IMG/VR virus record: IMGVR_UViG_2687453522_000003 | Coordinates: 1-40,804 of that record | Direction: 5' to 3' (one strand) | Source of the DNA: a virus | Lineage: Duplodnaviria > Heunggongvirae > Uroviricota > Caudoviricetes | Length of the DNA: 40,804 bases | Shown here: positions 4,423 to 5,551 of the stretch, one piece after another | Layout of the letters: every line of letters begins with the position of its first letter | Numbering within the stretch: position 1 is the first letter of the stretch | Translations under genes and position numbers: made by a program | Notes under the pieces: model-generated | The model's database searches: none | What the model saw: the letters and a program-made list of their open reading frames with translations, nothing else | What the model was told of the DNA's origin: nothing

Positions 4423-4825
4423 AATTCCTCCAAGGGGTCTAATGGGTGAAACTTTATCACTCATTTAACCCAGAAGGAAATGTTTTATCTGGATATTTAA
4501 ACAGTGACTGCAACGTAATCTAGCACTGGTGATGCTTTGTTAGGCATAGAGAATCATTCTATATACGACTAATGACAGAAAAACAGCAGACAAGTAGTTT
4601 GTTCATAAATTAACGCATACTACGTGCCTACGGTTTTCGAGACCGGTCCAATCATCAAACGAAACATAAAATTAGCTCACATTATGAGGAAAAGTATCTT
4701 TTTTGTACTATGTAAATTCAAAGGCTTAGCCTCATTTCTCCGATGGTTTTCTCAACACTACTGGTTGTGAGCCCTTGCAATGTTCATTAATATACGTCTC
4801 ACAAATAATTCATAGATATTGCAAA

Positions 4826-5551
4826 ATGGATATTACTGAGTTTCCTTCTGGAGTAATTGAACACCTTGGCTGGTATGTATACCGATTGATTGATCCGAGG
4901 GACGGAAGCACCTTCTATGTAGGGAAAGGCAAAGGTAACCGCGTATTTGCCCATATGCGTGGTGAAGTGGCAGCGACTGATGATGACGAGTTACTGAGCA
5001 ACAAGCTAAAGCAAATTAGAGAAATAAGGTTAGCAGGACTTGAGGTTATCCATGTCATCCATCGACACGGAATGACTGATGAAAAGACGGCATACGAAGT
5101 TGAAGCAGCACTTATTGATGCCTACCCTGGGTTAACGAATATCATGAATGGTGCTGGCAGCAATGAATTCGGCGCCGCGCATGTCAAAGAGTTGATAGCA
5201 ACATATCAACCCGAAACCATAACATTTCATCATAAAGCATTAATGATTTCCGTTAACAGAAGTGCAAAGGATTCAGAGCTTTATGATGCTGTTCGATTTA
5301 GCTGGCGCATTAATGTCTCTCGCGCCAGCCAAGCAGAAGTCATTCTTGCTACTGTAAGGGGGATCGTTCGAGGGGTTTTCATTGCTGATAAATGGCTCAA
5401 ATCAACACGTGAAAATTTCCCTACGATGAAATACTGGGACGAGGATCCGGACTTTGAGGCAACACAAAGTTCTCGCTATGGTTTTGAAGGTCGAGAAGCC
5501 TCACCTGAAATAGCAAATCTTTATCTTGGAAAAAAATACCAGATGAATTAA
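4826..5551 (+). CDS. GIY-YIG nuclease domain protein
   Basis: N-terminal [27 protein letters not shown] matches the GIY-YIG pattern (Y-x-Y ... YVG ... R ... H); track ORF starts at an upstream TTG (4775), the first ATG is 4826. Confidence 0.7.

Follow-up and report, generated by a model that had tools for sequence, protein, structure and literature searches.

A prophage-borne GIY-YIG nuclease gene beside an EcoRII-type restriction-modification pair very probably belongs to the PD-T4-3/CMoRE defense family and carries a frameshift before its conserved tail

INTRODUCTION

What is the role of a lone GIY-YIG nuclease gene that lies back to back with a restriction-modification (R-M) pair near the end of a prophage? 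The question is raised by the window, i.e., the whole 40,804-nucleotide stretch of viral DNA analyzed here (IMG/VR record IMGVR_UViG_2687453522_000003), in which such a gene is divergent from the methylase of an EcoRII-type pair. An earlier note, made from the sequence, had offered three readings: a stand-alone defense nuclease, a homing-type endonuclease, and a functional partner of the R-M pair. We hold with high confidence that the gene is an already known and mechanistically understood single-gene defense nuclease, PD-T4-3, now also named CMoRE. The present analysis established to which family the gene belongs, how well its motifs are conserved, its genomic context and distribution, and the frameshift; the biochemistry and phage specificity come from the literature and concern proteins that are 86 to 98% identical to the protein of the window. 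The effect of the truncation, the CCWGG specificity of the neighbors, and their complementarity with the nuclease are what we infer from these data.

RESULTS AND DISCUSSION

Gene start and domain organization

The list of open reading frames (ORFs) gives the nuclease gene a mechanical start at TTG 4775. Its true start codon is ATG 4826, because this is the RefSeq start in the near-identical CRE1493, corresponds to residue 1 of the crystallized protein, and agrees with the N termini of homologues (Table 1). The clear GIY-YIG signature that had been reported near the N terminus is confirmed: it occupies residues 15 to 39, with both G15-W-Y17-V-Y19 and F30-Y31-V-G33 present, and Pfam family LEM-3_GIY-YIG (PF22945) matches residues 28 to 110 well above its cut-off (E = 1.8e-14; 54 bits versus 27). 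The ∼200 residues that follow had been described as lacking any recognizable motif. The stretch is real, in that a Pfam search found no second domain in the nuclease and an NCBIfam search with the GIY-YIG protein gave no match, but it is not unassignable: residues 116 to 237 align without gaps to the CMoRE structures 9U75 and 9U7U and constitute the CMoRE modification sensor. [quoted passage not shown]

TABLE 1 Features of the nuclease locus and its neighbors (positions are those of the window)
Feature	Positions	Strand	Evidence or remarks
EcoRII-type restriction endonuclease, convergent with the methylase	1740..2954	+	Pfam EcoRII-N (E = 4e-61) and EcoRII-C (E = 2e-71); PADLOC REase_II
EcoRII-type Dcm C5-cytosine methyltransferase	2989..4464	-	Pfam DNA_methylase (E = 4e-78) and DNA_meth_N
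Divergent intergenic region, 361 bp, AT-rich	4465..4825	.	GC content, 35.5%
Coding sequence assigned to PD-T4-3/CMoRE, frameshifted allele	4826..5551	+	241 aa; wild type, 257 aa
N-terminal GIY-YIG domain: Y17/Y19/Y31, R39, E93, acidic lid D52-D53-D54-E55	4826..5131	+
Flexible interdomain linker, ∼residues 102 to 115	5129..5170	+	AF2 pLDDT of <50 at residues 102 to 115
C-terminal modification-sensing domain, ∼residues 116 to 237, including Y127	5171..5536	+	Aligns with 9U75/9U7U up to residue 237
A7 run in which one base is deleted relative to the A8 of relatives	5530..5536	+
Out-of-frame remnant encoding the conserved basic 20-residue tail and stop codon in A8 alleles	5537..5598	+
Pin/Gin-type serine DNA invertase of the prophage tail-fiber switch	5659..6249 (from the RefSeq start, 5659 to 6213)	-	Pfam Resolvase and HTH_7

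Assignment to the PD-T4-3/CMoRE family

The PADLOC profile for PD-T4-3 (PDLC04031) matches residues 1 to 237 of the protein along positions 1 to 236 of its 256 (E = 2.2e-128), and PHROG 5356 matches with an E value of 7e-133. A search of PDB sequences with the nuclease returned four entries only: 9U75 and 9U8D, which are PD-T4-3 of Escherichia coli O157:H7 (E = 4e-157; ∼98% identity), and 9U7U and 9U7Z, from APEC O1 (E = 1e-138; ∼86% identity). Relative to the O157:H7 protein, residues 1 to 237 contain five differences (T51A, E55D, Q168K, N197H, and S226P). The same four CMoRE entries were found with the AF2 model of the 257-aa sibling P0016 (E = 1e-38 to 5e-41), and the next-best structural matches of this model were UvrC GIY-YIG domains (E = 0.04 to 0.08 over ∼94 aligned columns).

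Family alignments of 20 and 30 sequences have invariant columns at Y17, Y19, Y31, R39, R80, E93, L96, and Y127 and a nearly invariant one at V92. The three N-terminal tyrosines are those of the published GIYxY-YIG motif of CMoRE, and R39 and E93, for which the paper gives no residue numbers, would be the catalytic Arg/Glu pair (PMC12923530). The acidic run D52-D53-D54-E55 is identical to that of the APEC O1 protein; in O157:H7 it reads DDDD. The CMoRE proteins of O157:H7 (9U75 and 9U8D), APEC O1 (9U7U and 9U7Z), and ECOR68 belong to the same family and have the same architecture over residues 1 to 237, with Y127, an acidic lid, and the tyrosines of the GIYxY-YIG motif, and they likewise form a single-gene system located in a prophage. 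In contrast to the O157:H7 copy, the copy in the window ends in YQMN after residue 237, so that the conserved 20-residue tail is gone, and it adjoins an EcoRII-type R-M pair that the O157:H7 locus does not have.

The protein of the window therefore combines an end-to-end family match with the GIYxY-YIG motif, the acidic loop, the C-terminal sensor, and the single-component organization of the family, and the one family character that it lacks is an intact tail. A copy without an intact tail is a damaged or mis-sequenced member of the family rather than a nonmember. [quoted passage not shown]

Published biology and proposed mechanism

PD-T4-3 originated in the selection of Vassallo et al. (2022) from the E. 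coli pangenome, and it was renamed CMoRE by Liu et al. in 2026 (PMC12923530). CMoRE gives BL21(DE3) ∼1e5-fold protection against T2, T4, and T6, and this protection is nonabortive. DNA containing 5hmC or 5ghmC is bound and degraded by the enzyme, which neither binds nor cuts DNA containing C or 5mC. The enzyme is a tetramer and requires two modified cytosines, cutting at the site CN11/N9G and leaving 2-nt 3′ overhangs. Its acidic loop of four consecutive negative residues is autoinhibitory, and removal of the charge makes the enzyme toxic. In complexes with 5hm-dCTP, the main-chain O of Y127 contacts the 5-hydroxyl of 5hmC, and the C-terminal domain has a new fold for which the authors found no homologue (PMC12923530). 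Deletion of the gene from a clinical isolate rendered it sensitive to Tevenvirinae, and additive, nonoverlapping action of PD-T4-3 and an R-M island has been observed in a strain other than that of the window (bioRxiv 10.1101/2024.12.20.629700). A Capnocytophaga homologue with 48% identity is active on T4 DNA and inactive on T4-GT7 DNA; at high dose it cleaves Mu DNA as well, which contains a modified adenine (PMC12366544). Given the cleavage of Mu DNA by this one homologue, the specificity of the family may be broader than 5hmC and 5ghmC. Cleavage and protection experiments on the family cover the proteins of O157:H7, APEC O1, Klebsiella, NILS69, and Capnocytophaga.

We propose that the nuclease would assemble as a tetramer (a dimer of dimers) in which the C-terminal domain would grip a flipped-out 5-hydroxymethyl- or glucosyl-hydroxymethylcytosine. 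A pair of modified cytosines ∼21 bp apart, in the site CN11/N9G, would be required, and the N-terminal GIYxY-YIG domain would then cleave both strands to give the 2-nt 3′ overhangs. The acidic loop D52-E55 would cap the active site and repel ordinary DNA, so that host DNA, including the 5mC produced by the neighboring methylase, would be spared. The outcome would be direct, nonabortive destruction of T-even phage DNA.

A neighbor rather than a partner of the R-M pair

The methylase next to the nuclease gene is matched by NCBIfam PRK10458 with 926 bits (its RefSeq start is at 4422), the R-M pair is ∼80% identical to the plasmid EcoRII locus, and its specificity is predicted, from family membership, to be CCWGG. 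The nuclease could in principle be a functional partner of the pair, i.e., a third subunit, a nickase in the repair of Dcm-derived T/G mismatches, or a regulator, and the tight divergent arrangement of the genes invites this reading. So does part of their distribution. Among 5,426 complete E. coli genomes, 261 contain this EcoRII-like endonuclease (262 of the 263 matching records at an identity of at least 99%), and 260 of these 261 also contain the 150-bp segment that leads from the methylase into the nuclease gene (positions 4465 to 4614), which occurs in 260 of the 5,426. These counts were obtained by separate searches; a single 6.3-kb query found only 6 genomes, as a result of IS1 insertions and differing left flanks. 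The pair and the nuclease also stay together where the adjoining tail module differs, as well as in a circular element of 43.7 kb. The co-occurrence with a Dcm-family methyltransferase that the earlier note had envisaged is thus real, but it is one-sided: hardly any genome has the pair and lacks the nuclease, whereas the nuclease gene is present in 866 of the 5,426 genomes and has the pair in only ∼30% of them. The remaining ∼600, among them an inspected O157:H7 strain, carry the gene without the pair, i.e., ∼70% of nuclease loci have no adjacent methylase, and the neighbors of the gene otherwise vary (an AraC regulator, a LysR remnant, an icd remnant, or IS1).

Published experiments also weigh against a partnership. 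BL21(DE3) is a dcm-negative B strain. The nuclease gene alone protects this host, the O157:H7 allele, from a locus without the R-M pair, was crystallized and assayed, and purified CMoRE has neither binding nor cleavage activity on C/5mC DNA (PMC12923530). Pfam and NCBIfam searches gave no Vsr family match for the nuclease. The classical plasmid EcoRII locus has no nuclease neighbor, its homology with the window ending at position 4504, and the identity of at least 99% among the R-M copies argues for one recent insertion rather than long coevolution. A functional partnership in any of its three forms is therefore very improbable. The nuclease is a neighbor of the R-M pair and not its partner, because only ∼260 of the 866 genomes have the pair and because stand-alone defense has been published. 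The one-sided co-occurrence, together with the near identity of the R-M copies, suggests that the pair was inserted once, recently, upstream of a nuclease gene that was already in place, and that it then spread with the prophage arm.

Even less credit can be given to the proposal that the gene encodes a selfish homing endonuclease of the Seg/Tev kind, moving its own gene between related prophages. The GIY-YIG fold is common to homing endonucleases, some phage homologues of the nuclease are annotated as “putative homing nuclease,” the gene lies at a recombinationally active junction flanked by ∼23-bp repeats, and there is a marginal match to PHROG 314, “homing endonuclease” (E = 0.0027). The full-length match to the defense family, however, surpasses it by ∼125 orders of magnitude, the C-terminal half is the 5hmC sensor of CMoRE rather than a homing-type DNA-binding domain, and the published cleavage is modification dependent and directed at the loose CN11/N9G site instead of a long specific target (PMC12923530). 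An abortive-infection toxin was also considered as a candidate and is ruled out by the published nonabortive behavior (PMC12923530).

As a stand-alone enzyme with an R-M neighbor, CMoRE would be both compatible with the pair and complementary to it, in that it would ignore 5mC and attack the hmC DNA of T-even phages that evade R-M. The EcoRII-type pair would form an independent layer that cuts unmodified CCWGG DNA, with CMoRE taking the hmC DNA that escapes.

The intergenic region

The nuclease gene is indeed divergent from the methyltransferase across an AT-rich gap of ∼360 bp, as first described: the gap measures 361 bp with 35.5% GC (403 bp if the methylase begins at its RefSeq ATG, 4422), compared to 43 to 45% GC in both flanking genes. 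This GC content lies in the lowest 0.5% of 361-bp windows in positions 1 to 6300 and in the lowest 4.4% across the whole window. Comparison by BLAST with NCTC9041, O157:H7, STEC388, and H28 placed the break-points of a mosaic: positions 4465 to 4504 are common to the plasmid EcoRII locus, positions 4465 to 4614 occur only with the R-M pair, positions 4615/4628 to 4825 are also found in prophages without the pair, and positions 4757 to 4825 (69 bp) are the minimal part common to all contexts.

The description of this region as a long “leader” fared less well, as its transcribed status found no support. A promoter scan of positions 4300 to 5750 gave three promoter-like sites versus 3.4 expected by chance, and on the plus strand of the leader there was none except a 9/12 match at 4398 to 4425, which lies within the 491-aa methylase ORF. 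A terminator scan of the same positions found none, the RNA structure of positions 4615 to 4830 was no better than that of shuffled sequences (z = −0.37), and an Rfam scan of positions 1000 to 6300 returned two subthreshold matches only (E ∼ 0.06). Two small ORFs in the leader, one of 48 aa with a GTG start (4624 to 4770) and one of 25 aa, were considered, and neither is supported.

By eye, TTGTGA-17-TAATAT at 4765 to 4793 is a possible weak promoter that falls below the scan threshold. The methylase promoter must also fit within positions 4465 to 4825; the EcoRII methylase autoregulates through its N-terminal domain. Native promoters of CMoRE alleles vary in strength (Liu et al., PMC12923530).

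The A7 tract and the lost C-terminal tail

The homopolymer at the end of the sensor domain is A7 in the window and A8 in CRE1493, NCTC9041, and O157:H7. The change from A8 to A7 shifts the frame after residue 237, giving GKK-YQMN-stop and the loss of residues 238 to 257; in A8 relatives the gene continues to the equivalent of position 5598, an end obtained by reading the window in the A8 frame and checked against the end of the CRE1493 coding sequence and against the 257-aa P0016. The tail has the consensus IPDEYRKKGAxxPVKYS and, although not among the defining characters given by the authors of the CMoRE study, is conserved throughout the family. Homologues down to 55 to 60% identity all have P239, G246, and Y253, and at least 90% conservation is seen at R243, K244, A247, and P250. 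In the AF2 model the tail has a pLDDT of 79 to 89, with a strand at residues 251 to 253. It is apparently ordered in the crystals as well, because the CMoRE chains contain 246 to 248 of the 262 construct residues although the linker is missing, which leaves little room for disorder.

Whether the locus is a dead or crippled pseudogene, in which a genuine slipped-strand deletion from A8 to A7 removed a structurally required tail and defense was lost, is a more evenly balanced matter, and we regard this as a serious possibility that falls somewhat short of probable. The A7 tract differs from the A8 of all three relatives named above, the exact 91-mer of the window around the tract occurs in none of 595 RefSeq records of complete E. 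coli genomes, and the lost tail is the conserved, predicted-ordered segment just described. General indel noise is absent: over 40.8 kb the window differs from its ST167 relative CRE1493 by one mismatch (position 17560) and one gap, and this gap, in the A tract, is the only indel although there are 19 homopolymer runs of at least 7. Further, STEC388 has an independent A7 allele, in a different context, that RefSeq annotates as a frameshifted pseudogene. On the other hand, the errors that typically persist with PacBio RS II chemistry are deletions of one base in a homopolymer. The exact 241-aa protein is recorded once only (AMU80936.1, from E. coli strain Sanji), and the Sanji chromosome is a de novo assembly of PacBio RS II reads (PMC6392093). 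Loss of function upon truncation is itself a prediction, and the A7 allele contains an in-frame slippery heptamer, A_AAA_AAA, at which a −1 slip would, on our reading, restore the exact wild-type tail. The truncated allele, as written, is probably impaired or dead unless the missing base is a PacBio homopolymer error.

Prophage context and the pin-adjacent slot

The window is a prophage integrated at thrW, tRNA-Thr(CGT), next to proA. Besides a contractile tail of the Mu type, it encodes cI/Cro, Q, lysis functions, terminase, and an HK97-type head. The nuclease gene occupies a cargo slot at the far end of the prophage, just past the 3′ end of the pin invertase gene, which is annotated pinE in CRE1493, O157:H7, O103, and K-12. 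The left prophage end was placed by comparison with NCTC9041, in which homology begins near position 1300; when positions 39000 to 40000 were compared to positions 1 to 6300 for a repeated att core of the tRNA-Thr gene, only chance matches of 12 to 13 bp emerged. Searches of Pfam, NCBIfam, PADLOC, PHROGs, and PDB sequences with the neighboring 326-aa ORF at positions 1 to 981 (minus strand) gave no match.

The nuclease gene lies beside pinE or at a prophage end in five different contexts. In O157:H7 it has the same pin-adjacent, prophage-end position; in NCTC9041 it directly abuts chromosomal DNA; in O103:H2, IAI39, and ST131 it is directly beside ssrA, adjoining a lambda-type tail in ST131; it is also found in the 43.7-kb circular element; and in STEC388 it fills this slot in an e14-like element that is located at icd. 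The e14 element of K-12 has mcrA in the same slot, which extends from the 3′ end of pinE to the junction of prophage and chromosome.

Comparison with NCTC9041 also delimits the R-M insert, at ∼1491 to 4636. Imperfect repeats of 23 bp mark its two ends, GCATACGACGTGGCTGCGGTTTC at 1470 to 1492 and GCATACTACGTGCCTACGGTTTTC at 4614 to 4637, and a third copy of the repeat lies at the pin 3′ end (5640 to 5662). Positions 1484 to 1666, within the insert, correspond at ∼90% identity to part of the 3′ end of ssrA together with sequence downstream of it, which fits a derivation of the R-M insert from ssrA-resident prophages.

A more elaborate interpretation of the locus is that (a) the R-M pair and CMoRE form a cotraveling, two-layer “cytosine” cassette that is shuffled between unrelated prophages and (b) the A8 tract is a contingency switch; taken as a whole, we consider it unlikely. 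The R-M enzyme of such a cassette would cut unmodified CCWGG DNA, and CMoRE would cut the hmC/ghmC DNA that escapes. The elements taking part in the exchange would be those at ssrA, thrW, dusA, and icd, whose tails are of the Mu or lambda type, and recombination would use the ∼23- to 40-bp repeats at 1452 to 1492, 4614 to 4637, and 5619 to 5662 beside the pin 3′ end. As a switch, the A7 tract would be an OFF allele in which −1 slippage on the in-frame A_AAA_AAA might still provide a small amount of full-length enzyme.

Relationship to other modification-dependent and GIY-YIG nucleases

As a CMoRE nuclease, the protein can be compared with several known systems, beginning with McrA, which occupies the same genomic slot in K-12 e14. 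We take McrA and CMoRE to be of the same functional class, modification-dependent nucleases directed against modified-cytosine DNA. The proteins are unrelated, however, McrA being an HNH type IV restriction enzyme with a different sensor in contrast to the GIY-YIG enzyme here. McrA also targets 5mC. This base, unlike hmC, is ignored by CMoRE (PMC12923530). Compared by description, PvuRts1I/AbaSI and GmrSD are likewise hmC/ghmC dependent, have separate sensor and nuclease parts, and cut at a fixed distance. PvuRts1I-type sites are roughly CN11-13/N9-10G with 2-nt 3′ overhangs, and the CMoRE site CN11/N9G closely resembles them. The folds, again compared by description, differ: PD-(D/E)XK with an SRA-like domain, or DUF262/DUF1524, versus GIY-YIG with a sensor of its own in CMoRE.

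The GIY-YIG catalytic core is shared with the N-terminal domain of UvrC, Eco29kI, and Hpy188I, although these have no extra GIYxY tyrosine, acidic lid, or modification-sensing domain, and the structural match of Hpy188I to the P0016 model was at chance level (E = 1.4). The similarity of the CMoRE GIY-YIG domain to UvrC has also been reported with the crystal structures (PMC12923530).

Implications

The discovery value of the assignment is small: the family was found in 2022, its mechanism and crystal structures followed in 2025 to 2026, and the copy studied here is ∼98% identical to a crystallized protein. The identification is nevertheless useful for annotation, as RefSeq still calls the product no more than a “LEM-3-like GIY-YIG domain-containing protein” and a model for it is lacking in NCBIfam. 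Two small points go beyond the papers cited here. One is the A8 tract just before the conserved, apparently structured tail, where frameshifts recur (in Sanji and in STEC388); these alleles offer a natural test of whether the tail is necessary. The other is the genomic context: CMoRE shares its pin-adjacent slot with mcrA of K-12 e14, and ∼30% of the E. coli loci add an EcoRII-type pair, which would provide a layered defense against phages with unmodified or modified cytosine.

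Origin and rearrangement of the restriction-modification and nuclease arm

The R-M pair (EcoRII-type endonuclease and Dcm-type methylase) and the neighbouring PD-T4-3/CMoRE GIY-YIG nuclease gene appear to have come into this prophage from one that integrates at ssrA, as the same arm directly adjoins genuine ssrA in ST131, IAI39, and O103:H2. Within the window, positions 1484-1666 match the ssrA 3' end (…GCGGTTTCAACTCCCGCAAGCTCCACCA) and the sequence downstream of it at ∼90% identity. This ssrA-like fragment is present despite the location of the prophage at tRNA-Thr.

A sequence of 23-40 bp, with the core GCATACGACGTG(G)CTRCGGTTTC, occurs in three imperfect copies (1452-1492, 4614-4637, and 5619-5662), two of which flank the R-M insert, while the remaining one overlaps pin, the serine invertase gene, at its 3' end. 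A single hybrid copy lies at the junction in E. coli NCTC9041, which lacks the R-M pair, and the copies may be crossover points for cassette exchange. The divergent promoter region of the methylase and nuclease is split in one sub-lineage (strain Res13-Lact-EB12-05 and relatives) by an IS1A element (at 6212-6909 of the Res13-Lact-EB12-05 locus), whose insertion point corresponds to window position 4466, precisely where the methylase start meets the nuclease leader.

Accessory genes and conservation of the prophage

Coordinates of accessory genes and of an example nuclease homologue
Feature	Record	Position	Strand	Remarks
326-aa protein (WP_023147794 in CRE1493)	window	1-981	-	family unassigned by profile/sequence searches
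Moron-like gene, 145 aa	window	25636-26073	-	AT-rich (30-35% GC across the three genes)
Moron-like gene, 273 aa	window	28058-28879	+	AT-rich (as above)
Moron-like gene, 161 aa	window	28903-29388	+	AT-rich (as above)
Nuclease homologue, Serratia phage Moabite	NC_048792	6406-7110		

WP_023147794 had no matches across Pfam, NCBIfam, PADLOC, PHROGs, and PDB sequences. In CRE1493, a near-identical ST167 relative, it lies between an island of tyrosine integrase, HsdM-type methylase, and zinc-ribbon genes and the ssrA-like fragment, so it may belong to the cargo of a second element lying in tandem. The three moron-like genes, without significant match in Pfam and PADLOC searches, are placed between the holin and Q antiterminator and beside HNH/terminase genes, positions typical for uncharacterized prophage defense or exclusion genes. 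The sole base substitution relative to CRE1493 over 40.8 kb (C versus T at 17560) falls within the tail-terminator gene region; apart from this and the one-base deletion in the A7 tract, the two ST167 strains carry the same prophage sequence.

Nuclease homologues in jumbo phages

Full-length homologues of the nuclease, with both domains and 40-47% identity, are encoded by jumbo phages (∼255-279 kb; records H141-H155) of Serratia, Pectobacterium, Pantoea, and Klebsiella. Their annotations read GIY-YIG endonuclease, homing endonuclease, or simply endonuclease, and their targets may be competing hmC phages.
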